Shown: positions 21,677 to 55,114, counted from the first letter of the stretch. The stretch: 64,000 nt of DNA from Gammaproteobacteria bacterium (GCA_029243585.1 JAQWRR010000041.1:3477-67476); one strand, 5' to 3'. The notes: generated by a model from the letters alone, not told the origin. Made by a program: numbers and translations.

Positions 21677-21679
21677 GAA

Positions 21680-33923: not shown

Positions 33924-34829
33924 TTAACTGACAGTTTTATACCAGTCAAGAATCTCCTCACCTGTCATCATACAAACATCGGGTTTAGAAAGAATATAAT
34001 TATATAGATCTGCAAGATACTTGATGCGGTGAGGTGCTCCGCTTAAGAATGGATGCACACTGATTGCCATTATGCGAGTGTGTTCAGTTCCTTCCTCATA
34101 AAGCCGATCAAAGTGATCAATCCCACGTTTTAAGAAGATGTCAGAAGTATGTTGTTGTAATGCCATCATGGGAATGTCATTAACTTCAACGGTATAAGGT
34201 ACTGATATTAGTGGGCCTGCAGTTGTAGTTATCTCTACCGGTTGATCATCTACCACCCAGTCAGCGATATATTCAATTCCCTCTTCAGCTAACAAGTCTG
34301 GGGTTTCGAACGTTTCCGTTAACCCGGGGCTTTCCCATCCACGTGGAGGTTTACCAGCCACACTACGAATAGCCTCTATGGTATCGCGTATAGCTTGTCG
34401 CTGATCCGGAACTTTGTGCATCGGTCCTTGTAAAAAGCCATGTCCCATGATTTCCCAGTTAGCCTCTAATGCCGCTTCTATAATGCGGGGATAGGTTTTA
34501 CATACTGAACCATTGGTGGCTAGTGTTGCCCGTTGCCCTATAGACTGAATAGCTTCAAGTATTCGCCAAAAGCCAACACGCATTCCATATTCATGCCACG
34601 CCCAGTTCGCTAGATCGGGGACCAGAGGTTCTCCACGGGGTGGTGATAGGACTTGACGGGGCATTGGATAATCAATTGACCATTCTTCTACATTAACTAT
34701 TGTCCACACTGCTATGCGACCATTATTAGGCAGTGGTAACCGAGGTCGGTCTATAATTGCACTGTAAGGTAGACGTTCACGAGGACTCATAGGTTCAGAC
34801 ACAGTTTTATTCGCTCCATCCTGCTTCAA
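33924..34829 (-). CDS. Polysaccharide deacetylase / PuuE-like divalent-metal hydrolase
   Basis: RIAVWTIVNVEEW, MGHGF and AISVHPF segments typical of the NodB-fold PuuE-like group. An alternative start at 34790 removes the overlap with the upstream gene. Confidence 0.7.
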   Translation of the reverse strand: MKQDGANKTVSEPMSPRERLPYSAIIDRPRLPLPNNGRIAVWTIVNVEEWSIDYPMPRQVLSPPRGEPLVPDLANWAWHEYGMRVGFWRILEAIQSIGQRATLATNGSVCKTYPRIIEAALEANWEIMGHGFLQGPMHKVPDQRQAIRDTIEAIRSVAGKPPRGWESPGLTETFETPDLLAEEGIEYIADWVVDDQPVEITTTAGPLISVPYTVEVNDIPMMALQQHTSDIFLKRGIDHFDRLYEEGTEHTRIMAISVHPFLSGAPHRIKYLADLYNYILSKPDVCMMTGEEILDWYKTVS

Positions 34830-35748
34830 TTAAATATTCTTCAAATGTTAATAGCCAAGAGAATTCATCACGAAGTGCTGCCACATTAATAGGATCAATA
34901 TTATCTCTGTACCAAGTAGTTGCAGCGATAGCTATCGGAGAGGCTGAGGCAGTAAATTCTTCCCAAGACATTTGTTTGTAAACGACTGGTCTGTTCATAA
35001 CACGGCTCATAGCATCTGCTATACCTGCATAAGTTGTTCGGTCACTGGCAATTGAAAGAGTTTTTCCTAACCAATCGGAAGGATAATCAAAAGCTTCTGC
35101 AACAAAACGTCCAATGTCTGAGGGAGCCACAAATACTCGTTCGAATTCTGGTAGTTGAGGTCCGCTAAACTCCCCTCCTTGAGCATCTGTTCGCCATACT
35201 TCAACAGTACTCATGAAACTTGCTGGACGTACAATCGTGTATGGAATTTCAAGCGATTGAATATAGTTCTCTATCACCAGCTTACTTTCAAATTGTGGAA
35301 CACCTGTTCTTAGTGGGGCTTTTGCCACTGAGGTATAAATGAAGTGCTTTATTTCTGCCCGCTTAGCAGCATCAGCGAAGGCTTTGCCCTGTCGAATTTC
35401 CCCATCAATGCCTACGCCACGGTATTGCTGTACAGAGAAGGCACCGTAAGCGCCTTCCAGCGCTCTGTCTAAGGAAGCTGGATCATCAAAGTCACCTTGT
35501 ACCATCTGTATGCCATGCGCTTGCAGGGCTTGAGATGCTTCACTGTTTGTGTTTCGTGTAAGCCCCTTAACAATGTAACCACGTTGTACTAACTCTCGAG
35601 CAACCGCACCACCTTGAGTGCCTGTAGCTCCTGATACCAAAATTATTTGTAAGTGACGATCGTTTGGCTGTCCCCAACCACTAATACTTATGAGACCTAT
35701 AAGGAGTAAGACAAGCAGTTTGCCTGATCGTAGGTAGTTCTTTTTCAA
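34807..35748 (-). CDS. NmrA-family NAD(P)-binding protein with an N-terminal signal/anchor sequence
   Basis: The hydrophobic N-terminus KLLVLLLIGLISISGWG is followed by the Rossmann motif ILVSGATGTQGGAVAREL. Confidence 0.7.
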   Translation of the reverse strand: MKKNYLRSGKLLVLLLIGLISISGWGQPNDRHLQIILVSGATGTQGGAVARELVQRGYIVKGLTRNTNSEASQALQAHGIQMVQGDFDDPASLDRALEGAYGAFSVQQYRGVGIDGEIRQGKAFADAAKRAEIKHFIYTSVAKAPLRTGVPQFESKLVIENYIQSLEIPYTIVRPASFMSTVEVWRTDAQGGEFSGPQLPEFERVFVAPSDIGRFVAEAFDYPSDWLGKTLSIASDRTTYAGIADAMSRVMNRPVVYKQMSWEEFTASASPIAIAATTWYRDNIDPINVAALRDEFSWLLTFEEYLIEAGWSE

Positions 35749-35791
35749 TTTTCCCCCTAATTTATATGACGCATTCTAGTTTATTTTTTCT

Positions 35792-36916
35792 CTAATTTAT
35801 TAAGCGAAAACGTTGAACCCGTTCTCCCTGCTGTACCTCACCAGTATATAAATTTCCATTAGAGTCTACGTCAAGCATATGTAGTCCATGAAACTGACCG
35901 CCGTTGTCGCCCGCACTTCCAACTCGGTTTACGACAGTCCCATCCTCCCGATCAAGAATCCAAATGGTGTTGTTTTGGATATCAGGAATAATCAGAAACT
36001 TCTGATCAGCATCATGTGAAAAAGCAACACCACCTGCAGAACCCCTTTGTCTAGTCCATGTTGCCAGGAAAAACTCTTTTTGAAATTCACCCTGTTTGCT
36101 GAAAACCTGAATTCTATTACCACGTCGATCTGCCACATAGACCCAACCGTCATTTGAAAGATCCAAGGTCACATGTCCAACAAAATCGGATGAAATGGTC
36201 ACAACATCTCTATCAGGCGATTCGCTGCTGTAAAACTCAACGCCTCCACCATTAGTAGGTCCATCAGTAGCAACTACGCCAATTTCGCTCAGAGGTTTAC
36301 CATATGCTCCCCAGCCACGCTTGAACTCAAGTGTATCCATGTCATAAACCATTACCCGGCCATTTAGATAATTATCAATGGTATACAACTCCCTCATCGG
36401 TTCATCTGCTCGAACTTCTTCAATCTGATCAACGATGATCTCCGTTTCTGGTGGATACTTGCCTTCGGGAGGCTCCGCTTCTGGAACCCTTTCAATTGCA
36501 CCCACTAATTCACCGTCTAGGGTGTATTTGCGGACCGTGTCGGAGCCAATCCAAACATGTCCTTGGCGATCTACCATCATTCCATGACCTTCTTGGGTAT
36601 CCCATGATCGAATGACATTACCCTCTACATCAAATGCAATTACTGCTGGTGGGGCTATGCAGCACTCTGCTACGGGAGGGTCAAGCTGTGCATAATTTTC
36701 AGTGTTGCTAAGATTACTAGGGCGATTAAGCACCCAGATATTATCTTCATGATCAACATATAAACCGGTTACACCTTGCATCCACCACTGATTTGGCAGA
36801 GGCAACTTAGGCCATTCCGCATCGAATTTGTACTGTGGTGCTTGCGCTTGAATGCTAATAGTGAAAGAAAAACAACATAGAGCAATGACAATACTGGCAG
36901 CTCTTTTAATATTCAT
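35792..36916 (-). CDS. Exported NHL-repeat beta-propeller protein (PAL-like)
   Basis: The start at 36916 has an AGGAG RBS, and a signal peptide ends in IQAQA. NHL-like blades are visible (VYVADRRGNRIQVFSKQGEF, LIIPDIQNNTIWILDREDG, LYTGEVQQGERVQRF). Confidence 0.65.
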   Translation of the reverse strand: MNIKRAASIVIALCCFSFTISIQAQAPQYKFDAEWPKLPLPNQWWMQGVTGLYVDHEDNIWVLNRPSNLSNTENYAQLDPPVAECCIAPPAVIAFDVEGNVIRSWDTQEGHGMMVDRQGHVWIGSDTVRKYTLDGELVGAIERVPEAEPPEGKYPPETEIIVDQIEEVRADEPMRELYTIDNYLNGRVMVYDMDTLEFKRGWGAYGKPLSEIGVVATDGPTNGGGVEFYSSESPDRDVVTISSDFVGHVTLDLSNDGWVYVADRRGNRIQVFSKQGEFQKEFFLATWTRQRGSAGGVAFSHDADQKFLIIPDIQNNTIWILDREDGTVVNRVGSAGDNGGQFHGLHMLDVDSNGNLYTGEVQQGERVQRFRLIN

Positions 36917-36948: not shown

Positions 36949-37704
36949 CTACCGCTCCGGTTTCATCTCCGGTAGCTCGGACAGCATAAGTTCTTGGCAA
37001 ATAAATTCCGCTAGTTCAAAGTCTCTAGATTTGAAAGTGATGCTGGAGTTCCAGGGTGTTTTGTAGGCAATTGGGTCATCTATGGTAATTTTGTTCTCTA
37101 GTGTTTGTTCATCAATACGTCTAATCTTCTCAATAAGACGTAATTCATCGCTATGAGGCCAGCCGAGACGATCAAGCCAGCGTTGCTGTTGTTCAGATTC
37201 CCAGCCAATAAAATAGCGTGTTTCAATGACTAAACTATCTCCTTCGTAGTGACCTATGGAATACCCATTCCATGTGTGTAACGGAATCTCGGGGAATTCT
37301 CGCCCATCTGTGTAGATGACTCGCCAAAAGTTATCCGTTTCGAACAGCATTACAACCCTATCTGGGAGTTGAATAATTTCAAAGGGCCGTGGTCGAAAGT
37401 AAGCATGGGGCATTCCCATTGGGAGGCATAGTAATTCTGCTGCATTAGATTCTGTAGCGGATGCGGGATTGGCCCCATGAATTGGCTTTGCTAAAGCAAA
37501 CCGTTCCTGCCCCCACTGTGTAAGCGGGGGTTCTTCATTTACAAGAGCTGGTGAAGCAAGTGTTGGGTATCTTGGTCCGCCGCGCCCGCCCCATAAACTT
37601 TGCCAGACTCCAGAAAGTTCTGGTGTTTGTCCAAATACGGTTGTTATAGCGCTAAGCCCAACTAATAGAAGAATGGTTTTTGCTGTTATTCGGTAGCCGC
37701 TCAT
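36949..37704 (-). CDS. Exported ~250-aa partner protein, copy L1 (uncharacterised family)
   Basis: Signal peptide present. It shares long identical runs with L2 (RPRPFEIIQLP, PLHTWNGYSIGHYE, QQRWLDRLG, RDFELAEF.CQELMLSELPEM). The core DGR.FPE...G.SIG.YEGD.LVIET is shared with L3 and the fusion. Confidence 0.7.
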   Translation of the reverse strand: MSGYRITAKTILLLVGLSAITTVFGQTPELSGVWQSLWGGRGGPRYPTLASPALVNEEPPLTQWGQERFALAKPIHGANPASATESNAAELLCLPMGMPHAYFRPRPFEIIQLPDRVVMLFETDNFWRVIYTDGREFPEIPLHTWNGYSIGHYEGDSLVIETRYFIGWESEQQQRWLDRLGWPHSDELRLIEKIRRIDEQTLENKITIDDPIAYKTPWNSSITFKSRDFELAEFICQELMLSELPEMKPER

Positions 37705-37714: not shown

Positions 37715-38116
37715 TCAGGGATCGTTTCTTACATTGATATGAGTACCGTCCATAAGTTCTACAGCCTCAGTCCACATTGAGAGAACATTTGGGCGTCTGT
37801 CAGGGTTACCAATGATTGTTACCTGATCTCCTGGTTTGAATGTATCTTTGTTCCAGCTAAAAAACCTATAAAGATCTTGAACACTTTGAAACTCTCCTGA
37901 CCAGCTTTCAATTTCTCCCACTTCATTGACCACATCCAGAAAGATTCCAACATGAGGATTTATAAACTGCCATTTAGAGACAGTGCCAGTCACTGAGATT
38001 GACTTGGTTCGATCATAGGCAGAGTTAGCATGATGCGCTTGTGCTTCCATGACTGAACTGAAGAAAAATAAAATAGCAGACGAAACCAAAATAATATTAA
38101 TTTTTGTTCGTACCAT
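37715..38116 (-). CDS. Small exported His-His protein, copy S1 (DUF6152-like from memory)
   Basis: The signal peptide ends in EAQA, then HHANSAYD...GTVSKWQFINPH...W..E...FKPGD. The ATG at 38116 is preferred; the ORF extends to 38146. Confidence 0.7.
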   Translation of the reverse strand: MVRTKINIILVSSAILFFFSSVMEAQAHHANSAYDRTKSISVTGTVSKWQFINPHVGIFLDVVNEVGEIESWSGEFQSVQDLYRFFSWNKDTFKPGDQVTIIGNPDRRPNVLSMWTEAVELMDGTHINVRNDP

Positions 38117-38146: not shown

Positions 38147-38866
38147 TCACTCAGGCCTCATTTCTGGTAATTCAGATAACATCAGTTCCTGACATACAAA
38201 CTCTGCAAGTTCAAAATCTCTTTTTCTAAAGTTTAATGTACCGGTCAGTACATTTTCGTATGCGATAGGGTCATGGATAGACACTTCATTTACTATCGAT
38301 TCAGCATCGACACGCCGAATTCGTTCGATAATTCTTACTTGGTCACTAAATGGGTGACCAAGGCGATCAAGCCATCGCTGTTGATTCTCTGATTCCCAGC
38401 CCAGTATATTCCTAGTCTCGATAACTAGCGTGTCTTCTTCGTAGTGCCCTATGGAGTATCCATTCCAAGTGTGTAGAGGTACTTCTGGGAAATCCCGACC
38501 ATCCATATATACAATTCTCCAGAAATTATTAATTTCAAAAAGCATTACAACTCGGTTTGGGAGCTGAATAATCTCAAAAGGTCTAGGACGGTAGTAGGTT
38601 CCCGGAAACCCCATCGGCAGGCACTGCATTTCGGCGGCATTGGATTGAGTGGCTGATGCAGTTCTGGGACCATGAAGCGGTTTAGCCAGGTCAAAGCGTT
38701 CTTGTGCCCATGAAGTCATTGGAGGATCAGGAACGAGTGAGGAGGCCCCTGGAAAATTCCTTTGCCAGACACCAGAAAAGTCAGGAACAGATTGCGCTTT
38801 AGTCACAATGGCCATCAGGTAGATCAGGGACCAGATAAAAAATTTTGTTAAAGTATTTAAAAGCAT
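38147..38866 (-). CDS. Exported ~250-aa partner protein, copy L2
   Basis: The ATG at 38866 gives a signal peptide (MLLNTLTKFFIWSLIYLMAIVTKAQS) and a 4-nt gap after the S2 stop. It is highly similar to L1. Confidence 0.7.
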   Translation of the reverse strand: MLLNTLTKFFIWSLIYLMAIVTKAQSVPDFSGVWQRNFPGASSLVPDPPMTSWAQERFDLAKPLHGPRTASATQSNAAEMQCLPMGFPGTYYRPRPFEIIQLPNRVVMLFEINNFWRIVYMDGRDFPEVPLHTWNGYSIGHYEEDTLVIETRNILGWESENQQRWLDRLGHPFSDQVRIIERIRRVDAESIVNEVSIHDPIAYENVLTGTLNFRKRDFELAEFVCQELMLSELPEMRPE

Positions 38867-38870: not shown

Positions 38871-39260
38871 TTAGTCTGGAGCGCTCCGCACATCCACTTC
38901 TGACCCATCAGCAAAGATCACTATTCGGGTGCTAATAGTTGGACCGCCGGTTCTGGCAGGATGGCCAATAAGAGTAATTGAATCACCTGGTTTAAATGTG
39001 TCCTTGTTAAATTTGAAGTGTCGATAAAGGTCAAGTGTTCCTTGAAATTCTGCTGACCATTCTTGTTTCTCTCCATTTTCGCCCATTATGTCTAGCCATA
39101 GGCCTGCATGAGGGTTGATGAATTGCCATTTAGAGACAGTTCCAGAGATAGTAATGTCTGTTGATCTGTCATAAAGAGAGTTTGCATGATGCGCCTCAAT
39201 TGAGACGCCAGTTATAGCTGTAAGCAGACTTACGACTATAAAAACATTTCTTTTTTTCAC
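38871..39260 (-). CDS. Small exported His-His protein, copy S2
   Basis: The signal peptide ends in SIEA, then HHANSLYD...GTVSKWQFINPH...NKDTFKPGD. First gene of the minus-strand operon. Confidence 0.7.
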   Translation of the reverse strand: MKKRNVFIVVSLLTAITGVSIEAHHANSLYDRSTDITISGTVSKWQFINPHAGLWLDIMGENGEKQEWSAEFQGTLDLYRHFKFNKDTFKPGDSITLIGHPARTGGPTISTRIVIFADGSEVDVRSAPD

Positions 39261-39464: not shown

Positions 39465-39923
39465 GTGGGAATTAAGCAAATATTGGTTGAAGCGTCCCGT
39501 TTTCAAATGGCATACGCACTGCTTAGAATTACCATGGGCGTCAATATGTTTTTTCATGGATTTATGAGAATTATCAGTGATACTGGTGCGTGGGTAGATG
39601 GCCAAGTAGCGTTATTTACAGATATTGCAAACCCGTCTTTTCTTCCTACATTGTGGGTTACTATATTTTTATGGATTTTGCCCTTTTTTGAGCTCGTGTT
39701 TGGGGCTTTGCTAGCCTTAGGTTTGTATACTTACTGGCTGTCTGTTACTGGAGCATTAATGATGTTTGTTCTGATATTTGGTAACACAACTAGACAGGCG
39801 TGGGGGACAGTTGGTAATAACATGCACTATACACTCTACTTCTGCATTCTAGTTGCCGCACAGTCTTATGACTGGCTATCGATAGACTCACGACGTTCCG
39901 CAAAGGTTAGTGCTGATAGCTAA
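39465..39923 (+). CDS. DoxX-like small integral membrane protein
   Basis: 152 aa with four hydrophobic segments. LLRITMGVNMFFHGF...ELVFGALLALGL resembles the DoxX family. GTG start with a GGGAGG RBS. It is divergent from the S/L operon. Confidence 0.55.
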   Translation: MGIKQILVEASRFQMAYALLRITMGVNMFFHGFMRIISDTGAWVDGQVALFTDIANPSFLPTLWVTIFLWILPFFELVFGALLALGLYTYWLSVTGALMMFVLIFGNTTRQAWGTVGNNMHYTLYFCILVAAQSYDWLSIDSRRSAKVSADS

Positions 39924-40057: not shown

Positions 40058-41524
40058 GTGTCTGAATCTTTTTCGACGTTACAGTCTAAGCCGATCCTTA
40101 GCCCGGATAGACGAAGAATGCTACATATCATTGCAGGACCTTCTGTTTTTCTTGTTCTTGCACTAGCGCCAATTTTAGAGCTGCCCTATGAGATAAGGTG
40201 TAGCATCGGACTACTTATTTGGATGGCGTTGTGGTGGATAACACGCCCTGTCCACCTTGCAGTTACCGGTTTTCTTCCACTAGCTACTGTTGCTCTTTTT
40301 AATTTTGCGTCTATAGATAGAATTTTACCGGCCTATGCAGCAGAGCTTGTAATTCTTCTTTTGTCTGCAAATGTTTTAACTACGTGTTGGACGCGATGGG
40401 GGTTAGATAGGCGTATTGCCCTTGTCTCATTGATTGGGGTTGGCACGAATACAACACGACAAATTATGTCCTGGTTTGCTATTGGAATGATCCTTAGCGC
40501 GTTTCTGCCTAACACTATTGTTGCTGCAACCATGATTCCTATTGTCGTTGCCATGTTGAAATTTATTGGTATCGAAGATTTGTGGGAGAGCAATCTTGGT
40601 ACTGCATTAGTGATAGCAGTGGCATGGGGAACTAGTGCGGGTGGCGCGACAAGTCCACTTGGAGGAGCGCCTAATCTACTTACCGTTGAATATATTCAGG
40701 AGATGGTTACTGGCGAAGAGTTTCTTTTTGCAACCTGGGTGACACGTTTTTTACCCTTAAGTCTTGCCGTTATGATCGTGACATTTATTTATGTCCGGTT
40801 CGCATTCAAACCAGAGATTAAAGAAATAGAAGGTACTCGCGATTTCTTTTTATCTGAGCTTAAATCTCTCGGTGCAATGAGTAGTCAGGAAAAATGGGGT
40901 TTCTTTTTGTTTGCGGGAGCAGCAATCCTTGCGTTCAGTCGACCTTTGTACTATGAGTTGGTGCCTTCGTTAACGCCAGCCTACGCCTTTTTATGTTGTG
41001 CCATCATCTGTTTTCTTGTTCGTTCGCAAGGAGAAAACCTCATGACCTGGGAGTATGCCCAGGGGAAGATGATGTGGGGACTATTCTACCTTTTTGCCGG
41101 TGGAACAGCTTTGGGGCGTGTGCTCACTGAGACTGGAACAGCAGGTTACATTGCTGAGGCGTTGCTTCCTTATGCTAGTGGAGGCGGGATTTTCGCTGTC
41201 TTCGTTTTTGCTGCGCTAACTTTACTGATGACCCAAATCACCAACAATACAGCCGCTATTGCTATTACCGTTCCGATCACGATTAGTACTTTCCAAAGCT
41301 TGGATTTGAATCCCTTGCCATTCGTCTACATCGTGACGACGGTAGGCAATTGTGGTTTTATGTTGCCAACCTCAGCTGGAGGTCCAGCGGTTGCCGCTGG
41401 TTATGGGATTAATCTTAAAACAATGGCAGTGAAGGGTTTTTGGGCCTGTCTGCTTGCACTGATCGCGGTAGTAATAGTGGGCTATTTGTTATCTATTTAT
41501 TGGCCTACTTTTAGTTCAGTGTAA
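40058..41524 (+). CDS. SLC13/DASS-type (ArsB/NhaD superfamily) anion permease
   Basis: 488 aa and polytopic. It shows the inverted-repeat hairpin-type motifs GTSAGGATSPLGGAPN and MLPTSAGGPAVAAGYG typical of DASS transporters. GTG start. Confidence 0.7.
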   Translation: MSESFSTLQSKPILSPDRRRMLHIIAGPSVFLVLALAPILELPYEIRCSIGLLIWMALWWITRPVHLAVTGFLPLATVALFNFASIDRILPAYAAELVILLLSANVLTTCWTRWGLDRRIALVSLIGVGTNTTRQIMSWFAIGMILSAFLPNTIVAATMIPIVVAMLKFIGIEDLWESNLGTALVIAVAWGTSAGGATSPLGGAPNLLTVEYIQEMVTGEEFLFATWVTRFLPLSLAVMIVTFIYVRFAFKPEIKEIEGTRDFFLSELKSLGAMSSQEKWGFFLFAGAAILAFSRPLYYELVPSLTPAYAFLCCAIICFLVRSQGENLMTWEYAQGKMMWGLFYLFAGGTALGRVLTETGTAGYIAEALLPYASGGGIFAVFVFAALTLLMTQITNNTAAIAITVPITISTFQSLDLNPLPFVYIVTTVGNCGFMLPTSAGGPAVAAGYGINLKTMAVKGFWACLLALIAVVIVGYLLSIYWPTFSSV

Positions 41525-41606: not shown

Positions 41607-42617
41607 ATGAAAGACATTCATAAGCTAATTTTGTCCGTCTCACTACTATTTGCATTGATCGTATCCTCAGGGGCAGGCGCCCAAGATGGTCTTATCTATC
41701 ATACTGAGGGTATAGCTGGATCAGACATCCCTGTGACTTACCATCTGATTTCAACTGACGATGGATTGCTCACACCTATTGGACTTCGAAAGCCAGAAGG
41801 TGATGGGCCTTTCCCAATTGTATTATTTTCTTCTGGTAATGGAGGTGAGGGGTATCAGTACGTAAAGGATTATAGCCATAACCGTGGCTGGACACTTGAG
41901 CAGTTTCTCGCAGCTGGTTATGCGGTTGCTTGGTTACGTTACCGTTCTGAGGTAGAGAATCCTGTATATGGTGGAGAATCCTTGCTAGCCCAACCTTGGT
42001 CGGGTCGACCTGTATTTAATAGAGCCCCCTTAGAATACGAAGATGCCATTAGGATAATCGATTATGTAGGATCTTTGCCTTACATTGATCCCAATAGGGT
42101 TGGATGGATGGGCGTTAGCCATGCTGGTGAGATGCTCATGAAAATAACGAGCATTTATGATGGGTTGGCTGCTGGAATAGCCTCTGAACCTGCTTCTGCT
42201 GGTTTTATGGCACGAGGGCAGGTTTCATCACTCTCTGAGATTAGTTCAGAAGAGTATGGTGAAGATGGCATGTCATCGCTTGAAACATCAGATAGTTATA
42301 ATGATGAAAGTCTCCAGTTAGCAGTGCAAGCAACGCATGAAGCGATAGATAGAGAAGTTGCTATGGCTCGGATTGGTTACATCGACACTCCAATATTTGT
42401 TCAAGGTCGAAGCCGAGACCATAATCAGCCAGTTTTCCGAGTCAACTATGAACTTCTTTCAGAAGCAGGTAAAAATGTGGAATGGAAGAGTTATGATCAT
42501 GACGTACACGGTTTTGTCTATGTGTGGCGAGATAGCGATGGTGATTATGCGCCAGATGAAGTCCAGCGTGAGGCTATTTCTGATTCCATAGAATTTTTTG
42601 ATCGTTATATGAAATAA
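41607..42617 (+). CDS. Exported alpha/beta hydrolase (S9/dienelactone-hydrolase-like)
   Basis: Signal peptide, nucleophile elbow GVSHAG and a late Asp/His region (RDHNQP...HDVHGF). Confidence 0.65.
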   Translation: MKDIHKLILSVSLLFALIVSSGAGAQDGLIYHTEGIAGSDIPVTYHLISTDDGLLTPIGLRKPEGDGPFPIVLFSSGNGGEGYQYVKDYSHNRGWTLEQFLAAGYAVAWLRYRSEVENPVYGGESLLAQPWSGRPVFNRAPLEYEDAIRIIDYVGSLPYIDPNRVGWMGVSHAGEMLMKITSIYDGLAAGIASEPASAGFMARGQVSSLSEISSEEYGEDGMSSLETSDSYNDESLQLAVQATHEAIDREVAMARIGYIDTPIFVQGRSRDHNQPVFRVNYELLSEAGKNVEWKSYDHDVHGFVYVWRDSDGDYAPDEVQREAISDSIEFFDRYMK

Positions 42618-45375: not shown

Positions 45376-45390
45376 TCTTTATCTTTCGCA

Positions 45391-47130: not shown

Positions 47131-47958
47131 TCAGTATTGATCTAACCCTTCTGTTAGTTCAATTCGAACTCCTGAGGGGTCCGTGAATGCGGCAACTTTA
47201 ACTGCAATGTTCTCAATTTCACGAAACTCCACATCAAACTCAATACCTTTATTAACAAGGTTTTGGTAGAAGGCTTCCAGGTTGTCAATTTCAAAGCCAA
47301 TATGATCTAAGGATCGACCACGGGTTGGTGCCGTTTCCAAGTCAGTCCATTCCCCATTCGGTAGGGCGAAGCTCATATTCATTCCTGGCACATTTGTCGT
47401 AGTCTCAATTCTGCCACGTGGCCTAATTTCAAGATCAAAAACATCAACATACCAGTCGAGCAATTCAACAAACATAGGAGTGCGATAGTGTATGTGATAA
47501 CCGGAGACTTCTACGTTTAATCCTTGGTCCTCTTGAAGTTCAACCCATACACCATCCGGCATAGTGACATATCCGTTTGGAACGCCCTCAGAGCCAATAA
47601 ACTCCCTATCAACTGTATAACCAGCTGCGCGCCAATTTGCTAAAAAATCTTCAATGTTTCGTACCTTGAAGCCAATGTGATCCATTACTGAGCCTGCTGT
47701 GCCTCCACTAGATGCGCCTTCCTCTAGGATGATAAAAAAATTCGGAAAGCGAATAGCAGTTAGTCCTCTATCAGCTAATCCGCTTTGTTGGCTTACAACA
47801 CCACCAAAGTGATCAACCCAAAGTTTAGTATGAAGTTCTGGATCGGTAACCTTTAGATGAACATGGCCAAAAGCAATGCCAGAATCACTTGGTACCGCAA
47901 GTTGACCATAGCTTGGGTTAATGAAAAAAATTAAGGAAATCCAACCAAGTAGCCTCAT
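47131..47958 (-). CDS. Exported two-domain VOC (glyoxalase/bleomycin-resistance/dioxygenase) family protein
   Basis: Signal peptide present. FGHVHLKVTD and MDHIGFKV lie in the first half, LDHIGFEIDNLEAF in the second half. Confidence 0.65.
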   Translation of the reverse strand: MRLLGWISLIFFINPSYGQLAVPSDSGIAFGHVHLKVTDPELHTKLWVDHFGGVVSQQSGLADRGLTAIRFPNFFIILEEGASSGGTAGSVMDHIGFKVRNIEDFLANWRAAGYTVDREFIGSEGVPNGYVTMPDGVWVELQEDQGLNVEVSGYHIHYRTPMFVELLDWYVDVFDLEIRPRGRIETTTNVPGMNMSFALPNGEWTDLETAPTRGRSLDHIGFEIDNLEAFYQNLVNKGIEFDVEFREIENIAVKVAAFTDPSGVRIELTEGLDQY

Positions 47959-48060: not shown

Positions 48061-48675
48061 CTAAGATTTTTTAGCTACTAATTGTGCAAGTGCTGCAGTA
48101 CGACCATCAGGATCTTTAACAAGGCCTTCATTATAAGAGAGAACTTTTAGTTCTTTAGCTGCATCATAAAGTGATTTGGGTGGAACGCGAAATTTAGGAT
48201 TTTTTGGGCCAATAACTTCTTTATTTGTAACTAGGTGTTCTTCTACGATCAGGTGCCCGCCTACTTTAAGAGCTCTATAAAGGTTTCTGATTAAAGATAA
48301 GTTGGTATATCGAATCATAATCGCAAGGTTGTATTCATTATCTATAAGATAATCACCTTGATTCTGAGTATCTCCACAATCTTGATGTAAACAGGTTATA
48401 GGCAATTTTTTCGAATTTGATTTTTTTTCTAAGAGTTCAAGAGCGACTTCTGAAATATCAAAAGCATCAACTTGCCAGCCATGTTGCGCTAGATAGATAG
48501 AGTTTCTACCAGTACCGCTTGCAATATCTACTGCTCGTAACTGGCGTGTATGGTTCTGTAATTTTGGTAACCATTCAGTTAATAGTGCACTGGGATGGGT
48601 GCGGGTTCCATATGCACCTTTCTTGTAACGCTCATTCCATTTTTTTTGACTGCTTGTATTCATAAATAAAGTCAC
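48061..48675 (-). CDS. Class I SAM-dependent methyltransferase (TehB-like)
   Basis: WNERY...SAM motif I AVDIASGTGRNSIYLAQHG, then VDAFDIS. 204 aa. Confidence 0.7.
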   Translation of the reverse strand: MTLFMNTSSQKKWNERYKKGAYGTRTHPSALLTEWLPKLQNHTRQLRAVDIASGTGRNSIYLAQHGWQVDAFDISEVALELLEKKSNSKKLPITCLHQDCGDTQNQGDYLIDNEYNLAIMIRYTNLSLIRNLYRALKVGGHLIVEEHLVTNKEVIGPKNPKFRVPPKSLYDAAKELKVLSYNEGLVKDPDGRTAALAQLVAKKS

Positions 48676-48829: not shown

Positions 48830-49591
48830 ATGTGGAAATTTAATGGGGGTTTGGCTATGGGTACAAGATACTTTTTACCGATGCTTTTTGTCAGTGTCAT
48901 ATTGGGCGCTGACTTAGCCACTAAATCTTATGCAGCAGAAGCCGATTATCTTATGTTGCCAGCATTATCAGCACAGAGCGTTCCAGCCGATATTCATGAA
49001 GACTCACGAGCACGTATTCCGATGGTTCGAAGAGATAATCTAGATGTAACCGGACAAAATGCTTTTGATACTTATGTTACGCCTGGAACAGGTTATGAAA
49101 CTGGACTGCGTGGGCCTATCGGCATGTTAATGAATAGTCCTGTTCTTGCTGAAGCCATGTTTGATGTTCGTAATCGTGTTCGTTACGGGTCTGCAAAGGA
49201 TCAACGCCTCACTGAATTGACTATTATTACTACAGCTCGCGAGGTGGATAACCAATATATTTATACAGCCCACGAACCAGCAGCAAGAAGAAATGGATTA
49301 GAACAGGAAATTATTGATATTGTCCGGTTCCGTGAACCATTGGATGATTCAATTGAGATTTCTGGTCTTGGCGAAGAAGAAAGCACAATCATAAAAATTA
49401 CACGGGAAGCCATAAATGAAGAGAAAGTTAGTTCTGAGACCTTTATGAAAGCTGTTGAACTCTTTGGTAATGAAGGTGTCATGGACTTAGTTGGGTTAAT
49501 TGGTTATTACAATTTTATGGCAATCACTATCAGATCATTCGACATACATAGAAATAATGATAGCGAGCTATTACTGCCGATAAAACGCTAG
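48830..49591 (+). CDS. Exported carboxymuconolactone-decarboxylase (AhpD-like) family protein
   Basis: The hydrophobic N-terminus is followed by LTELTIITTAREVDNQYIYTAHEPAARRNGLEQEIIDIV and LVGLIGYYNFMA, a pattern typical of the CMD family. An alternative start lies at 48857. Confidence 0.55.
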   Translation: MWKFNGGLAMGTRYFLPMLFVSVILGADLATKSYAAEADYLMLPALSAQSVPADIHEDSRARIPMVRRDNLDVTGQNAFDTYVTPGTGYETGLRGPIGMLMNSPVLAEAMFDVRNRVRYGSAKDQRLTELTIITTAREVDNQYIYTAHEPAARRNGLEQEIIDIVRFREPLDDSIEISGLGEEESTIIKITREAINEEKVSSETFMKAVELFGNEGVMDLVGLIGYYNFMAITIRSFDIHRNNDSELLLPIKR

Positions 49592-49634: not shown

Positions 49635-50444
49635 TTAAACGCCGAATGCGAAAATACGAGACTCTACCGATTCCCGCGGCGCTACATTTTCATCAGAACC
49701 TTCTGTATCAAAAGCCGTGTGGACGCACCAGCGGGCTCGTCCATCCTTTCGGGAGTCATATGTCTTAATTAAAAGAACCTCATCGGGATTCATATTTGGG
49801 AAATATATCCATCGTTGATGTGGGTTAAAACGAACCACAAAAATTTCTCCTATACGGTCTTTCGATTTGCGTTCTGCACAGACTAAATTTTCTGGAGAGA
49901 CGCTTTGAGCATCACAAACTGCTAAAGGAAAAGATGTAACCTTTTTAATTGGTCGCCATATATTTATGATGCAAAAAGGTTTTTCTATTAATTTTTCAGT
50001 ATCGGAACCCATAAAATCCCGTAGACGTTTTGGAGCCGAGTTGGGCGTATAGTCGTTGTGAATAACAGTTGTTGGCTCTCTACTGAGTTTCTGTTCTCGA
50101 AGTTTACTGTCACCGGAACGGAAGGTATGGTCAAAAACGTATGCACTATCAGCGCCTGTTGCGTTTATGACTATTTCTTTGCATTCAGCCTCATATTTTT
50201 TTCTTCCAGACTCAGTGTCATATAAGTTTTCAACTGTGGTTGTATGGTTGATTAAGCTAAAGCCCTGTTTATCAATAGAAAAGGACTCCTGAAGTTCTCT
50301 TCCATTCAAGATATTAACTTGCTTCTTTTGATAGTCACCCGCTAGTTCTAGACGAGCTTCTGCGCCACCAATAGACGCTTGATATATTGGTTTTGGGCTG
50401 TTTTCAGCTAGGAAAGTGAGGAGTCCATGAGTACTCATAAGCAC
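49635..50444 (-). CDS. CmcJ/NvfI-like (AsaB-type) oxidoreductase family protein
   Basis: VFDHTFR...VIHNDYTPNSAPKRL...INIWRPI...PLAVCDAQSV matches my memory of this family. It is the last gene of the minus-strand operon starting at 55114. Confidence 0.55.
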   Translation of the reverse strand: MLMSTHGLLTFLAENSPKPIYQASIGGAEARLELAGDYQKKQVNILNGRELQESFSIDKQGFSLINHTTTVENLYDTESGRKKYEAECKEIVINATGADSAYVFDHTFRSGDSKLREQKLSREPTTVIHNDYTPNSAPKRLRDFMGSDTEKLIEKPFCIINIWRPIKKVTSFPLAVCDAQSVSPENLVCAERKSKDRIGEIFVVRFNPHQRWIYFPNMNPDEVLLIKTYDSRKDGRARWCVHTAFDTEGSDENVAPRESVESRIFAFGV

Positions 50445-50462: not shown

Positions 50463-51395
50463 TCAGGTCCAGGGGGGTCGCCCAGTCAATCCAATAAGAT
50501 CCACCATACGTTGGCGAAGTTCTTCATTAGGCAGCATACCTTGACCCGCTTTTAAGTTATCTAATAGGTGGTTAGGGCTTGAAGTCGCCTGAAGTGCAAC
50601 TGTTACGGCAGGATGCGCCAAAATAAACTTCAAGAAAAATTGCCCCCAACTATGACAATCAAATTCAGTAGCCCAGTCAGGTAGAATCTTATTCTCTACA
50701 TAGGGGAATAGTGCGCCTGCAGCGAATGGTCTATTAATAAAAACTGCCATTCCTCGGTCCATAGCTAAAGGCAGAATTACTTCCTCTGCTTTCCGTTCGG
50801 CAACGCTGTAATTGATCTGTATAAAATCCAGTGGTTCACGCCGCATAATATCGATGAAATCTTCATAAAGTTCTTCACGAGATGCGGTAATACCAATGTA
50901 TCGATAGATCCCTTGTGCTTTTCTTTCTTTGAGAATTGGAAGTTGAGTTTGCCAATCAGCCAAGCTGTGAACTTGCATAAGATCAATTTTCTCGACGCCC
51001 ATTTTTTGTGGAGAAGCATCCATTTGACGGATACCCTGATCTCGGCCATCAGCACGCACCTTAGTAGCAACAAATAAATTATCAGGTAGGTCAATTTGTT
51101 GGGATAAATAACCAAAAGCAGCTTCAGAAGGACCATAAGCTGGCGAAGAGTCCACGACAGTGCCGCCATGTTGGAAAAAAATCTCTATTACTTGCTTGAG
51201 CGGATCAAGTTCGGCTGGATTGTCAGCCACATCAAAAGTGCGATAGGTGCCAAGCCCGATTACTGGTAGTCGTTCACCTGTTTTTGGAACCGTCCTTTGC
51301 ATGAGCCCGTTCTGAGCATAGACTCGGGCTGGAGCAAGCGCTCCTAGCAAGCATAGCTGACTAGCATTCGCTAGAACCTGACGTCTGGAGATCAT
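50463..51395 (-). CDS. Aldo/keto reductase with a twin-arginine (Tat) signal peptide, second copy
   Basis: The N-terminal MISRRQVLANASQLCLLGALAPARVYA is followed by an AKR core (VVDSSPAYGPSE, YIGITAS, INRPF). Confidence 0.8.
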   Translation of the reverse strand: MISRRQVLANASQLCLLGALAPARVYAQNGLMQRTVPKTGERLPVIGLGTYRTFDVADNPAELDPLKQVIEIFFQHGGTVVDSSPAYGPSEAAFGYLSQQIDLPDNLFVATKVRADGRDQGIRQMDASPQKMGVEKIDLMQVHSLADWQTQLPILKERKAQGIYRYIGITASREELYEDFIDIMRREPLDFIQINYSVAERKAEEVILPLAMDRGMAVFINRPFAAGALFPYVENKILPDWATEFDCHSWGQFFLKFILAHPAVTVALQATSSPNHLLDNLKAGQGMLPNEELRQRMVDLIGLTGRPPWT

Positions 51396-51407: not shown

Positions 51408-51848
51408 TTAATCTCGTTGTTGACGATATTCTTCAAGACGTGTTTGGACTATTCGCATTCGTTCTCCAAACTGACCATTTCCACCACCAACCTCTGTACC
51501 TGCAGCGTTTGTGATAAATGTCCACTCAATCAGGTTATCACCGAATCGTGAAGGCCGACCCAAGACTTGGACACGGTCCCCAGGCTTGAATTGATCATGA
51601 GTCCAACCTGCACGCCGAAGATTAATGATACTGTCGCCTTCAGCCATCCAAGATTCTGTTTCACCCTGTTCATTTGTCACATCTAAGTAAATGCGAGAAT
51701 GAGGGTTAACTGGTCGGAACTCAGTCACAGTACCTTCGATTTCTATACGTTCATCGACTATGTAGTGAGCAGCCGGATTGTGATGAGCCATGGAAGAAAT
51801 TGAAATTAATGCCATTCCACTAAAAATTACTAAGCTTTTACTAACCAT
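51408..51848 (-). CDS. Small exported His-His protein, copy S3
   Basis: The signal peptide ends in SSMA, then HHNPAAHY...GTVTEFRPVNPH...W.AEG...FKPGD. Confidence 0.65.
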   Translation of the reverse strand: MVSKSLVIFSGMALISISSMAHHNPAAHYIVDERIEIEGTVTEFRPVNPHSRIYLDVTNEQGETESWMAEGDSIINLRRAGWTHDQFKPGDRVQVLGRPSRFGDNLIEWTFITNAAGTEVGGGNGQFGERMRIVQTRLEEYRQQRD

Positions 51849-51863: not shown

Positions 51864-52691
51864 TTACATTTCACCAGAAATTGACTCACATGGAGCATCT
51901 ATCAGATTTACTTCAGGTGTGAAAATTCTAGTACGCTCTAAAACAAGTGGTTCTTGAAACATCACAGGGTCTATTAATGTGAATTGCCCATGTAGTCGCT
52001 TGCCATCCTCACTGAGTGTATAGCGTTCAATAGTACGTGCATTATCAGCATTATGAATATTCAACGCATCTTCAGCTATGCTCGCAGAGATATTTGCAGT
52101 ATCAATGACTAATGTTGAGCCCTCATACCAGCCAATTGAATGTCCTATTGCGGTGAGTGGCCCATTCTCTGGGTGACCACGGCCATCCATATAAACTACG
52201 CGATCAGCTGCTAAATCTTCTGGACGAATTATTATCTGATCCTGGTTTTGCTCGATAAGAATTGGGTCGTTATGGAGTATTGTTCTAAACACACCAAAGT
52301 ACTCACATTGGATCGAAGGGTCATCTGCATGATCATAAATAGCCAGGTAGTCTATTTGCTCTTGTGTATATAGGTTTCTAATAGCTAATCGATTGTAGTC
52401 TCTAACGGCTTCTTGAATCTCCAGAGCCGACATATGGTCATTTTCTGGCAGAAGGAGTTCACGAAGGTGATCATAGGTTTCCGATGTGCAGTTACAAGCA
52501 AATAAATCTTCAACCGTCCAGTCCGGATGTTCGATTGCCGTGACTGTTGTACTCCACATTCCACCAATAGCTGGTGGTGATTCTTGTGCCGTTAAGATTC
52601 GAGTGTCTAGCGAAAAGCCTAAAGCTATTAATGTAAGGCTGCTCAGCCGTAACAGATGATTCTGTATCCTAAGGGCATTTGTGTGTCTCAT
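51864..52691 (-). CDS. Exported partner protein, divergent copy L3
   Basis: The hydrophobic N-terminus is followed by IGGMW...VVYMDGRGHPENGPLTAIGHSIGWYEGSTLVIDT...LIDPVMFQEP and a C-terminal APCE. It lies 15 nt upstream of S3, so the gene order is reversed relative to S1/L1. Confidence 0.6.
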   Translation of the reverse strand: MRHTNALRIQNHLLRLSSLTLIALGFSLDTRILTAQESPPAIGGMWSTTVTAIEHPDWTVEDLFACNCTSETYDHLRELLLPENDHMSALEIQEAVRDYNRLAIRNLYTQEQIDYLAIYDHADDPSIQCEYFGVFRTILHNDPILIEQNQDQIIIRPEDLAADRVVYMDGRGHPENGPLTAIGHSIGWYEGSTLVIDTANISASIAEDALNIHNADNARTIERYTLSEDGKRLHGQFTLIDPVMFQEPLVLERTRIFTPEVNLIDAPCESISGEM

Positions 52692-52772: not shown

Positions 52773-53558
52773 CTATTCGGATGAATCTGGTGTCCATGCT
52801 CCTGTGAATTCATCAGGTCTCCTAAGACGACCATCACTACTAATAGAAAAATCTGACTCGGGTTCTCCTGTAATAGGATCTTCTTCACCAACATACTCAT
52901 AACGTGTTTGAACCCTTGAGTAGTTACCTTCGGCGTCACTTTCATATCTAACCCGTCTTCCAATTTCATCAAGCATCCCCAAAGACTGCTGAAACAGCCC
53001 TGGAGGTGGATAATCATCTGGAACTGTTCCCTCAAGAACATAGAGTCGACGATTAAGCATGTAAAGTCCAATGAAGGAACGAGATGCATCAGCATGGAGG
53101 ATTTGAATCTGGTGTCCTGGCACGCCATCTACCTGCCCAAAGGCATCATAGGTAATTTCGCCACTGTTACGCTTACGAATGTTCCATGCTTCATAAGCAA
53201 TACTACCCCTGATATCGCGCAAATGTCCTCGGCCCGTACAAGTATTAGGACTTACTATGTCAGTTTCTGCTGCAATTTGATGGCAGAGAGTCATATGCGC
53301 CTCTTCAGCTGCCGTATAGTCCACAACAGTAATCGCATATTGGCTGTCATTGCTTTGTGTGCTGTAAATACGGGCTGGAATGGTGGCACCAGACTCGGTG
53401 AGATAGTCACTCTCTATTACCTCAGGGTCTCCGGGGAAGTTCACAACAAACTGATCTTCTTGGTTTACGTATTTGATCCAGCCTTGTGAATAAGCAGTTC
53501 CAGACAGCAAAATACTAAGAGTAAATGGTAGGAGTATGATTATTTTTAATAGGTGCAT
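52773..53558 (-). CDS. Exported hypothetical protein (261 aa)
   Basis: Signal peptide ending in AYSQ and no recognised motif. It lies between S4 and L3 in the same operon. Confidence 0.45.
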   Translation of the reverse strand: MHLLKIIILLPFTLSILLSGTAYSQGWIKYVNQEDQFVVNFPGDPEVIESDYLTESGATIPARIYSTQSNDSQYAITVVDYTAAEEAHMTLCHQIAAETDIVSPNTCTGRGHLRDIRGSIAYEAWNIRKRNSGEITYDAFGQVDGVPGHQIQILHADASRSFIGLYMLNRRLYVLEGTVPDDYPPPGLFQQSLGMLDEIGRRVRYESDAEGNYSRVQTRYEYVGEEDPITGEPESDFSISSDGRLRRPDEFTGAWTPDSSE

Positions 53559-53588: not shown

Positions 53589-53963
53589 TTAGTCGAATTC
53601 TTTCTCTGTACCATCGTCCAGAGTTATGTAACCGAGTAAGCAACCTCTAGAGCCGTCTCTTAGTGGATGACATCTCATCTTCAGGTCGTCTCCCACCTGT
53701 ATGCTTTCTTGAGTCCAGCCATCTCGTCGAAGTTGCGTAATACTGGCACCCTCAATGGCCCAGGGTCTTGGCTGACCATCCGCATCTGCTACCTCAAGGT
53801 AGATCCAACTATGGGGGTTTAACCAATGAATCTCACTAACGGTACCCTCCAGAAACATCCATTCTGTCTCTACATAGTTGGCATGGGAGTGATGCCCCGA
53901 TGCAACTGGATTAATAGCTATGAGCATGAATATTGTTAAGACACTCGTTATTCTTAATCTCAT
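53589..53963 (-). CDS. Small exported His-His protein, copy S4 (no adjacent L partner)
   Basis: The signal peptide ends in VASG, then HHSHANYV...GTVSEIHWLNPH...W.IEG...VGDD. Confidence 0.65.
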   Translation of the reverse strand: MRLRITSVLTIFMLIAINPVASGHHSHANYVETEWMFLEGTVSEIHWLNPHSWIYLEVADADGQPRPWAIEGASITQLRRDGWTQESIQVGDDLKMRCHPLRDGSRGCLLGYITLDDGTEKEFD

Positions 53964-53992
53964 TAACCTCTCCTCAAGGAATTGCTAATTTT

Positions 53993-55114
53993 TTAGTTTG
54001 GATAAACAGGTACTGTAACTCGATCACCAAAAACGGATTGTAGTCCTGCAATGGCACAGGCCTCATCGTCGTTACTGCCGCCAACGCCGATCGCTCCTAT
54101 CATTTGACTATCAACCACTATTGGTAATCCTCCAGGTTCCAGGTGCCATCTAAATAAAAGGACAGATCGCGGTAAGCCATATGGTCTATTTGCTACTCCA
54201 GCTCCTCGCACTGAGGTTGGTGTTCGACTTTGTAAAGCTGTTTGCGCACGCAGTTTGGCTGATTCAATTCCGCTAGTAACCTGTCCATCCATGCGTTCTC
54301 CATGAACAGGGACACCAGAGGGATCTAATATGGTTAGTGACATTGTATCCCCACGTTCTGTTGCCCACGCACGACAGGCTAAGGCTACATTTCTTGCAGC
54401 ATCACCTGAGATTTGCGCTCCATTTTTGATGCCTGCTGCTGCAGCCCCTGAAACTACAAATTCAGGTGGAAGACTTGATGCTGGTGGTGAGTCCACAGTA
54501 AAGCGAGGGACTACCGCAACTACTGGTGTTTGTGGCCGTGGAATATCTTCAATCAATGGCGGCTGAGTGCCCATCACTTCAGTCATGGCCTTATGAGCAC
54601 AGATTTCATCACTCCACCCCTCAGCAATCCTTGGAGCAGATCCACCAACTCCGATAGCGCCGATTAGTTGATCATCCACAATGATTGGTAGTCCGCCAGA
54701 ATTAGAAAACACGCCGAGTTCTATTTGTTGCCATTCTTCACTAGGGTTACGAATCACGCGATTCATTCGTTCTTTGCTTGGTCCACGTATTTGTAACGCG
54801 GTCTTTGCCTTCATTTCTGCAGTTGCAGTATTTACCCACATTTCCCCATCCATACGATGAACGTAGACATCATTGCCATCATTGTCGAGAACATAAACAC
54901 TTATTGAGACCCCTCTTTCTCTAGCTAATTTTTCACACGCCATCGTAATGCGTTCAGCTGTTTCGAGGTTGATCGTTGTACTATCAAGTATTTCTCGTGC
55001 TGCTGGTCCTGAAACTACAAATTTTGACGGAACGCTTTGTGCGTTCGCCACTGAAGCTATTGCCAGCGAGGTAATAGCACAAAAGACGCTAACTCTTAAT
55101 GTATGTAAATTCAT
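53993..55114 (-). CDS. Exported protein with two tandem GlcG/DUF336 (HbpS-like, haem-degrading/binding family) domains
   Basis: Signal peptide present. The family signature occurs twice: SGGLPIIVDDQLIGAIGVGGSAP and PGGLPIVVDSQMIGAIGVGGSNDDE. Confidence 0.7.
   Translation of the reverse strand: MNLHTLRVSVFCAITSLAIASVANAQSVPSKFVVSGPAAREILDSTTINLETAERITMACEKLARERGVSISVYVLDNDGNDVYVHRMDGEMWVNTATAEMKAKTALQIRGPSKERMNRVIRNPSEEWQQIELGVFSNSGGLPIIVDDQLIGAIGVGGSAPRIAEGWSDEICAHKAMTEVMGTQPPLIEDIPRPQTPVVAVVPRFTVDSPPASSLPPEFVVSGAAAAGIKNGAQISGDAARNVALACRAWATERGDTMSLTILDPSGVPVHGERMDGQVTSGIESAKLRAQTALQSRTPTSVRGAGVANRPYGLPRSVLLFRWHLEPGGLPIVVDSQMIGAIGVGGSNDDEACAIAGLQSVFGDRVTVPVYPN

Follow-up and report, generated by a model that had tools for sequence, protein, structure and literature searches.

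A conserved, export-rich gene neighbourhood in a marine gammaproteobacterium that looks like a periplasm-centred locus anchored by two uncharacterised protein families

A stretch of bacterial chromosome in which nearly every gene product carries an export signal raises the question of whether its enzymes act together outside the cytoplasm, arrived on a mobile element, or have no function in common. The window analysed here is 64,000 nucleotides from a Gammaproteobacteria bacterium (GCA_029243585.1, JAQWRR010000041.1:3477-67476); the region under study, positions 33924-55114, holds 25 protein genes and one tRNA, and the rest of the window holds the remaining 31 protein genes. A sequence-only reading had described this region as an island of exported enzymes with five S and four L module copies, and had proposed a coordinated extracytoplasmic pathway. 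Gene calls and Pfam searches bore out its gene content and coordinates, and the module count is right when both halves of the S-L fusion protein at 45906-46937 are included. The region looks like a periplasm-centred substrate-processing locus anchored by two uncharacterised families, not like a mobile island. Both families, DUF6152 (the S module) and the unnamed L family, are large, exported and without described function.

For the export signals, every N-terminus was read by eye with alternative start codons, and a rule set was applied that asks for a positive n-region, an h-region with 10 or more uncharged residues and an AXA-type site, or for a twin-arginine (RR) motif. By eye, 19 of the 25 products have a signal for Sec or twin-arginine translocation (Tat); the rule set finds 18, missing only the L protein at 51864. 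Two others, DoxX and the DASS carrier, are polytopic membrane proteins, and four have no signal: the PuuE-like protein at 33924, the PcaD-like hydrolase at 43759, the TehB-like methyltransferase at 48061 and the CmcJ/NvfI-family protein at 49635. The claim that nearly every product has a predicted signal thus stands, and the N-termini pass as signals by eye and by rule set, neither being a trained predictor. Signals are less frequent outside the region (8 of the 31 other window products; Fisher p=3.7e-4 versus the region), and the enrichment has p=0.026 when the nine S/L paralogues are removed. Orthologues at 78-80% identity retain hydrophobic extensions at the N-terminus, although the sequences of these extensions have diverged. 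Two parts of the earlier description need correction. Calling the families normally cytoplasmic was overstated for several of them, because export is commonplace among redoxins, alpha/beta hydrolases, NHL propellers and HbpS-like proteins, and because the Tat-exported aldo/keto reductases (AKRs) belong to a widespread exported clade. The export-rich stretch is real, but its right border is not, since an exported NHL propeller and an exported putative cyclase at 57667-59815 carry the trait past the lipopolysaccharide (LPS) glycosyltransferases. The putative cyclase family is usually cytoplasmic.

The S module is Pfam DUF6152, and its five copies score 69.9-97.7 bits against a gathering threshold of 27 bits. 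In all five, Ala or Gly stands before the predicted cleavage site and His-His directly after it, so that predicted cleavage leaves His as residue 1, and an Asn-Pro-His (NPH) motif follows about 26 residues after the mature N-terminus. The same start is found in other genomes, where Ala, Gly or Ser precedes His-His in 100 of 103 fusions and in 13 of 13 stand-alone S proteins. The L module has no family in Pfam or NCBIfam; alignment of its four window copies shows a common Cys pair and the motif GxSIG...LVI.T. Across 114 fusions H20, H21, N46, P47, W65 and four Cys never vary, and A19 and H48 almost never do.

S and L are best regarded as a single unit, because they occur as a fused architecture, the AlphaFold2 (AF2) model of the fusion is confident (Table 1), and the C-terminal half of the fusion and stand-alone L are homologous (hhalign 99.4%). 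Residues 1-19 of the fusion model form a low-confidence helix, as expected for a signal peptide. Foldseek searches of the PDB match S to OB folds (SSB, the LysRS anticodon domain) and L, remotely, to the cellular retinol-binding and fatty-acid-binding proteins (CRBP/FABP; E=4e-4 to 5e-3, TM 0.52-0.64, root-mean-square deviation (rmsd) ~7 A), and a PDB sequence search with the S-L profile gave no match at E<=10. On these models S is a predicted exported OB-fold protein that starts with His-His after cleavage, and L is a predicted exported beta-barrel with a remote resemblance to fatty-acid and retinoid-binding proteins.

Both modules are widespread. At E<=1e-3 the L profile matches 13,360 cluster representatives (50% clustering), and at 1e-10 it matches 6,183; tandem L-L proteins of 450-530 aa are among these matches (P0241, P0242, P0246, P0247 and others). 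The S-L fusion architecture occurs in 201 database clusters and in at least 588 genomic stretches of GTDB species genomes, and among the best 80 of the 588 several genomes hold three or four fusion loci. Carriers include Rariloculaceae, Woeseiaceae, Porticoccaceae, Spongiibacteraceae and Steroidobacteraceae. The literature search found no paper mentioning DUF6152 and nothing useful on Rariloculaceae.

The partners of S-L were tallied over eight independent contexts of the g06-type stand-alone L, at 54-80% identity. A DASS carrier is adjacent in six of them, an NHL propeller in four, DoxX in at least four (it is kept beside S-L in L079, L082, L094 and L095) and a Tat-exported AKR in three. In three contexts, from relatives at 58-69% identity, the genes run S-L-(L)-DASS in one direction with gaps of 20-52 nt and are followed by NHL; in the window and three others, L082 and L095 among them, DASS lies within a divergent DoxX-DASS-AKR group. 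Because the arrangement is co-directional in some genomes and divergent in others, the S-L/DASS association must have survived rearrangement. This core of S-L with DASS, DoxX, NHL and AKR recurs down to 54% identity, and of all the evidence for a joint role of these genes, its persistence through rearrangement and strand inversion weighs most.

The fusions elsewhere keep different company. At 78 S-L fusion loci the recurrent neighbours are sulfatases (18 loci) and Amidohydro_3 proteins (12 loci), with metallo-beta-lactamase-fold, SnoaL and arylsulfotransferase-like proteins, Tat-exported DLH proteins and TonB-dependent receptors also present. By the rule set, 0.30 of the neighbours within 1.5 kb of these fusions are exported, versus 0.16 beyond 6 kb (p=5.5e-4). 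Since neighbours at the fusions differ, yet nearby ones are more often exported, S-L seems to accompany exported enzymes in general, with the window as an unusually dense example. The earlier proposal of a coordinated extracytoplasmic pathway therefore survives in part: linkage is upheld and the genes are not a random set, but a single pathway is not supported, because the region consists of two blocks with a variable junction and the enzymes beside fusions elsewhere differ.

Gene order marks the region as a conserved neighbourhood on the chromosome of a marine gammaproteobacterium, in which two blocks (33.9-45.2 and 45.5-55.1 kb) are each organised around S-L units. The left block is syntenic in L079, a relative with ~80% protein identity (74-89% for the block), where the order DUF4175, DLH, YtoQ, 2-oxoglutarate (2OG) oxygenase, deacetylase, NmrA, NHL, L, S, L, S, DoxX, DASS, hydrolase, AKR, hydrolase, redoxin is kept. 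The right block is syntenic in L087 and L088 at 62-92% identity, in the order cyclase, NHL, GT4, GT9, GlcG2, S, unk261, L, S, AKR, CmcJ, CMD-like, methyltransferase, VOC and then redoxin. Only the middle junction around tRNA-Met varies among relatives: it holds tRNA-Met, unk120 and the S-L fusion in the window, a fusion and RecQ in L087, an M24 peptidase and a TonB-dependent receptor in L088, and a small open reading frame and a TonB-dependent receptor in L079. The tRNA is absent from this position in L079 and L082. Within the blocks, the two seven-gene minus-strand runs described earlier were found again with corrected starts, from 39260 to 33924 with gaps of 4-43 nt and from 55114 to 49635 with gaps of 12-81 nt; from sequence alone, both have the co-directional genes and short gaps by which operons are recognised. 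A promoter-like site at 39360-39331 precedes the S gene that opens the left run, but the promoter and terminator scan gave counts at or under shuffled expectation and is uninformative. L079 and L082 have a MarR-family regulator gene between the YtoQ/2OG genes and DLH (16573-17022 and 20223-20723, respectively); the corresponding spot of the window, 32233-32361, has none.

This conservation bears on the possibility that the region is a genomic island, acquired horizontally by insertion at tRNA-Met. Such an origin would explain a tRNA-Met inside the region that is followed by a degenerate copy of the tRNA 3' end, and the slightly lower GC content at 44-50 kb; GC of the whole region is slightly under that of its flanks. 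The copy (cagatcgacagtttaagtctactcatcactacga) begins ~20 nt after the tRNA, within 45299-45430 on the plus strand. No integrase or transposase is found among the Pfam matches of the window proteins, no second copy of the tRNA-Met 3' end occurs within 3 mismatches, so that a matching far-end repeat is missing, and no convincing long direct repeats flank the region. Above all, synteny contradicts acquisition, since both blocks and the same flanking housekeeping genes are ordered alike in relatives at ~80% identity. Insertion at the tRNA is thus very improbable. The comparison also settles whether the region is strain-specific, a point that the sequence-only reading had left to comparative genomics: both blocks recur in the same order, and the genes are linked in relatives, not scattered. 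Conservation reaches genus depth or wider, and "island" is apt only as a description of a sequence stretch.

What the neighbourhood does is less certain. We lean, at somewhat less than an even chance, towards a general scheme in which a substrate is captured and converted in the periplasm and an anionic product is then imported. Small organic substrates would reach the periplasm, in some relatives perhaps through the TonB-dependent receptor at the junction, and S-L would hold or present them, with a His-His/NPH site in S that probably binds metal. Exported hydrolases and oxidoreductases would convert these substrates, Tat export allowing the reductases to carry bound NADP(H), and the DASS carrier would import the anionic product. 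In the cytoplasm the PuuE-like deacetylase, the PcaD-like hydrolase, the CmcJ-like and 2OG oxygenases and the methyltransferase would finish the conversion. The analysis itself establishes the signals for export, the conserved gene linkage, the fusion of S to L, the predicted folds and the sequence hallmarks; binding of metal and ligand, the identity of the substrate, its chemistry and the direction of transport are inferences.

Several observations weigh against this scheme. The enzyme families are heterogeneous, and no substrate can be named. The window cluster has no TonB-dependent receptor of its own. The AKR at 42649-43584 lacks its catalytic Tyr and His, and the periplasm would offer no NAD(P)H to an NmrA-like protein exported through Sec. 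The structural matches of L are remote, the DASS link is confined to the g06-type stand-alone L, and the signal calls come from reading and rules, not from a trained predictor. The enzyme families of the window are rare at the 78 fusion loci by BLAST; the fusions there lie beside other enzymes, so that S-L is not tied to the chemistry of the window, and because the window's enzyme set is absent from fusion loci as a rule, one fixed pathway is not claimed.

A rival reading is that the genes have no common function, the lineage exporting an exceptionally large share of its enzymes, the S and L paralogues having multiplied, and the dense signals being a by-product of local duplication and conserved gene order. 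The exported NHL propeller and cyclase beyond the LPS genes, the several cytoplasmic members of the cluster, the variable junction, the modest enrichment that remains without S/L, and the fact that the Tat-AKR clade is exported wherever it is found all agree with this. It accounts poorly for an S-L/DASS/NHL/DoxX association that outlasts rearrangement and strand inversion in relatives at 54-80% identity, and for the gradient with distance in exported neighbours at the fusion loci; we regard it as doubtful, though to be taken seriously. A periplasmic defence against oxidants or electrophiles is also unlikely. Here the redoxin, DoxX, VOC, AKR, CMD-like and HbpS-like proteins would detoxify quinones, aldehydes or peroxides, and S-L would be a sensor or scavenger. 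DoxX, VOC proteins and DLH-type esterases form a stress set in the MhqR regulon of Bacillus, which the family content of the region resembles; a MarR gene lies beside the cluster in L079 and L082; the tandem GlcG protein is related to HbpS and EfgA; and the redoxin is of the peroxiredoxin type with a probable selenocysteine. However, the most conserved partners of S-L are the DASS importer and the NHL propeller, which are not defence functions, the window itself has neither the MarR gene nor a SenS/SenR-type sensor kinase nearby, and the CMD assignment is under its cut-off.

The hallmark of S invites two readings centred on metal. S-L might be a periplasmic metal scavenger or chaperone that takes up Zn, Cu or Ni through its His-His and NPH motifs and delivers the metal to exported metalloenzymes in sea water where metals are scarce. 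The invariant N-terminal His-His fits, as do the frequency of metal-dependent hydrolases among the neighbours (amidohydrolase, metallo-beta-lactamase-fold, sulfatase, cyclase and VOC proteins) and a parallel with the periplasmic zinc protein ZinT/YodA, which is calycin-like and rich in His at its N-terminus. This is nevertheless quite improbable: many paralogues per genome are better explained by diversified ligand specificity than by a general chaperone, no metal transporter is linked, and DASS carriers move anions. A long shot, but a specific one, is that S-L is a new periplasmic metalloprotein in which the N-terminal His and the NPH His of S form a histidine-brace-type centre with Cu or another metal, acting on a hydrophobic or amphipathic substrate in the L barrel, with DoxX passing electrons from the quinol pool and DASS importing the oxidised anionic product. 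The strict His-His start would then reflect selection for an unblocked N-terminal His, in a lineage where about three-quarters of exported proteins begin with Gln. The general scheme of periplasmic capture, conversion and import remains the one that we prefer. Whatever the chemistry, the window presents S and L as a fused or paired unit with a sharp hallmark, the predicted mature His-His N-terminus, and conserved partners (the DASS symporter, DoxX, the NHL propeller and the Tat-exported AKRs) give a testable entry into what abundant Gammaproteobacteria of the sea and of sediments (Rariloculaceae, Woeseiaceae, Porticoccaceae) metabolise in the periplasm. For genetics, the fusion is available in organisms that can be cultured (Marinomonas, Leucothrix arctica and Tropicimonas aquimaris).

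Table 1. Features of the region and of the exported pair beyond its right border, in window coordinates (a hyphen within a signal or N-terminus marks the predicted cleavage site)
Feature	Coordinates	Strand	Evidence and remarks
PuuE-like polysaccharide-deacetylase-fold protein	33924..34790	-	Pfam Polysacc_deac_1 27 bits; NCBIfam PuuE domain 115 bits, under cut-off; no signal peptide; last gene of left run
NmrA-like NAD(P)-binding protein	34807..35748	-	Pfam NmrA 181 bits, domain from residue 35; Sec-type signal MKKNYLRSGKLLVLLLIGLISISGWG-Q, kept in L079
Exported NHL beta-propeller	35792..36916	-	Pfam NHL 26.7 bits; start ATG 36916 with ribosome-binding site; orthologue in L079 89% identical
L module copy, exported	36949..37704	-	Alignment of L copies; no Pfam match
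S module copy (DUF6152)	37715..38116	-	Pfam 84 bits; predicted mature N-terminus AQA-HHANS
L module copy, exported	38147..38866	-	301 homologues, Pfam family in none; AF2 pLDDT 81.5
S module copy, first gene of left run	38871..39260	-	DUF6152 79 bits; predicted mature N-terminus IEA-HHANS
DoxX-family membrane protein	39465..39923	+	Pfam DoxX 34 bits; divergent from S-L run
DASS/CitMHS anion symporter, inner membrane	40058..41524	+	Pfam CitMHS 161, Na_sulph_symp 134 bits, additional weak DctM match; NCBIfam DASS 156 bits
Exported alpha/beta-hydrolase-like protein	41607..42617	+	Weak Pfam Abhydrolase_3 20.5 bits; weak PDB matches to DPP4/esterase; signal GAGA-QDG
Tat-exported AKR paralogue	42649..43584	+	Pfam 67 bits; TRREFI motif conserved
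PcaD-like alpha/beta hydrolase	43759..44541	+	Pfam Abhydrolase_1 62 bits; NCBIfam 3-oxoadipate enol-lactonase 137 bits, under cut-off; no signal peptide
Exported AhpC/TSA-type redoxin, probable selenocysteine	44612..45235	+	In-frame TGA 44867-44869
tRNA-Met (CAT)	45299..45375	+	ARAGORN and Rfam; at variable junction of the two conserved blocks
Exported 120-aa protein (unk120)	45528..45890	+	No match in Pfam or NCBIfam
S-L fusion protein	45906..46937	+	Predicted mature N-terminus AYA-HHGS; AF2 pLDDT 91, pTM 0.86
Exported two-module VOC/glyoxalase-fold protein	47131..47958	-	Pfam Glyoxalase 50 bits; signal conserved in L087 and L088
TehB-like S-adenosylmethionine methyltransferase, predicted cytoplasmic	48061..48663	-	Pfam, NCBIfam
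Exported protein, weak CMD/AhpD-like match	48857..49591 (from 48830 in the sequence-only reading)	+	Pfam CMD 19.6 bits
CmcJ/NvfI-family oxidoreductase, predicted cytoplasmic, last gene of right run	49635..50438	-	NCBIfam NF041278 267 bits versus cut-off 80
Tat-exported AKR, intact tetrad	50463..51395	-	Pfam 92 bits; aligned to 6KIK; SRRQVL motif conserved
S module copy	51408..51848	-	DUF6152 83 bits; predicted mature N-terminus SMA-HHNP
L module copy, divergent, signal with long n-region	51864..52691	-	Alignment of L copies; orthologues 70-80% identity
Exported 261-aa protein (unk261), between S and L	52773..53558	-	No family match in Pfam or NCBIfam; similar protein near S-L fusions in 6 of 78 loci (BLAST)
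S module copy	53589..53963	-	DUF6152 98 bits; predicted mature N-terminus ASG-HHSH
Exported tandem GlcG/HbpS-like protein, first gene of right run	53993..55114	-	Pfam HbpS-like 144 bits, two stretches; PDB relatives EfgA, HbpS, NahX
Second exported NHL propeller and exported putative cyclase, beyond the right border	57667..59815	+	Pfam NHL 50, Cyclase 61 bits; signals AIA-QQT and VVG-QTR; pair syntenic in L086-L088

Most family labels given by the sequence-only reading agree with Pfam: NmrA, VOC, the two AKRs with their Tat signals, the tandem HbpS/GlcG protein and the NHL propeller score as in Table 1, and the C-terminal part of the redoxin alone reaches 41 bits as AhpC/TSA-type. Two family labels are weak. 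The CMD/AhpD-like match lies below the cut-off of 23 bits, and no NCBIfam or PDB match strengthened it; the alpha/beta hydrolase at 41607 likewise falls short of its cut-off of 25 bits. The gene at 49635, previously nameless, is the CmcJ/NvfI-family oxidoreductase of Table 1. The proteins unk261 and unk120 were considered as divergent L or S copies and rejected, with hhalign probabilities of 0.1% and 3%. The tRNA was the sole match in an Rfam scan of the whole window. Upstream, at 17540-31462, a gene run encodes DUF4159, membrane proteins, a C13-peptidase-like protein, a TPR/peptidase-MA protein, MoxR-like and DUF58-like proteins and a 1184-aa DUF4175 protein, and resembles a Bat/aerotolerance-type operon.

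The two AKRs differ in their active sites. The Asp-Tyr-Lys-His catalytic tetrad is intact in the protein at 50463-51395, as aligned to PDB 6KIK, whereas Tyr is replaced by Asn and His by Phe in the protein at 42649-43584, and both replacements are conserved in L079 and L082. With these two residues replaced, this AKR may bind its substrate without reducing it, or may use a different chemistry. The Tat motifs, TRREFIATMSALGVSG...LLA-Q and SRRQVLANASQLCLLG...VYA-Q, have the S/T-R-R-x-F/L pattern, an h-region and an AXA site, and are kept in orthologues. An RR motif is found in at least 84 of the 120 closest cluster representatives of the Tat-AKR clade, including members from Bacteroidota and Betaproteobacteria; none of the papers found in the literature search describes a Tat-exported AKR. 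The region also invites the question how enzymes of nicotinamide-dependent families can function in the periplasm.

The redoxin at 44612-45235 on the plus strand has TGA at the position of the redox Cys (W-[TGA]-P-F-C). This codon is conserved in L079, L081 and L083, and ~60 nt around it are nearly invariant in a relative at 80% identity. When U is read as C, the AhpC-TSA match spans the junction, covering positions 12-121 of 124 with 66.6 bits. A conserved hairpin (GCAACU-CGUGC-AGUUGC, at 44886-44902) lies 16 nt after the UGA, with a folding z-score of only -0.58, and there is a weak SelL-related NCBIfam match. The selA, selB, selC and selD genes do not lie within the 64-kb window. The conserved TGA at the redox-Cys position, the downstream hairpin and the match extended across the junction make the redoxin a probable exported selenoprotein.

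A further regularity concerns the residue exposed by signal peptidase. Gln stands at +1 in 17 of the 22 predicted sites of proteins other than S in the window (for example at 41607, 42640, 44612, 47131, 50463, 51864, 52773, 53993, 3838, 14501, 21680, 57667 and 58784) and is kept in orthologues; the S proteins are a consistent exception, with His-His instead. This pattern has been described as specific to Bacteroidetes, as the "Q-rule" (PMC5837995). The window shows it despite holding the gammaproteobacterial row lptD-surA-pdxA-ksgA-apaH. A crude automated count, which is noisy and indicative at most, suggests a bias of this clade, not one that S-L carriers share generally.

Among known systems, periplasmic catabolic loci served by TonB-dependent receptors, of the kind known as polysaccharide utilisation loci, likewise cluster exported enzymes with an inner-membrane importer; relatives of the region have the receptor inside the cluster, and the S and L accessory proteins are multi-copy and diversified. 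The region differs in having no SusD-like gene and no glycoside hydrolases, in the missing receptor of the window cluster and the receptors without SusD of its relatives, in enzymes of redox and esterase type, and in accessory proteins with an OB fold and a putative FABP-like barrel. The order S-L-(L)-DASS also recalls the solute receptors DctP of the tripartite ATP-independent periplasmic (TRAP) transporters and TctC of the tripartite tricarboxylate transporters (TTT), in which an exported binding-type protein lies directly upstream of a permease of the ion transporter superfamily. S and L have a different fold, however, and most S-L copies have no adjacent carrier. DASS/CitMHS carriers are not known to use binding proteins.

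At the level of single proteins, S resembles the metal proteins with an N-terminal His (the histidine brace of LPMO, CopC and PmoB; ZinT) in being exported, in having His as residue 1 on predicted cleavage and in having a further conserved His. Its predicted fold is OB and not immunoglobulin-like or cupredoxin-like, and it has no sequence relationship to them. In structure, L and the C-terminal half of the fusion match intracellular lipid-binding proteins (FABP, CRBP, CRABP) best, but L shares only ~10% identity with them at an rmsd of ~7 A, is ~70 residues longer, is exported and has a conserved Cys pair, and it has no Pfam lipocalin or FABP match. Glucose-fructose oxidoreductase of Zymomonas is exported through Tat with bound NADP, and would by analogy be a precedent for the folded export of a nicotinamide-cofactor enzyme proposed for the two AKRs; it belongs to the Gfo/Idh/MocA superfamily and not to the AKRs, one of which lacks the catalytic residues. 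The redoxin shares with the peroxiredoxin-like and SelL-related bacterial selenoproteins an in-frame UGA at the redox Cys and a conserved downstream hairpin, and differs from them in having a signal peptide.

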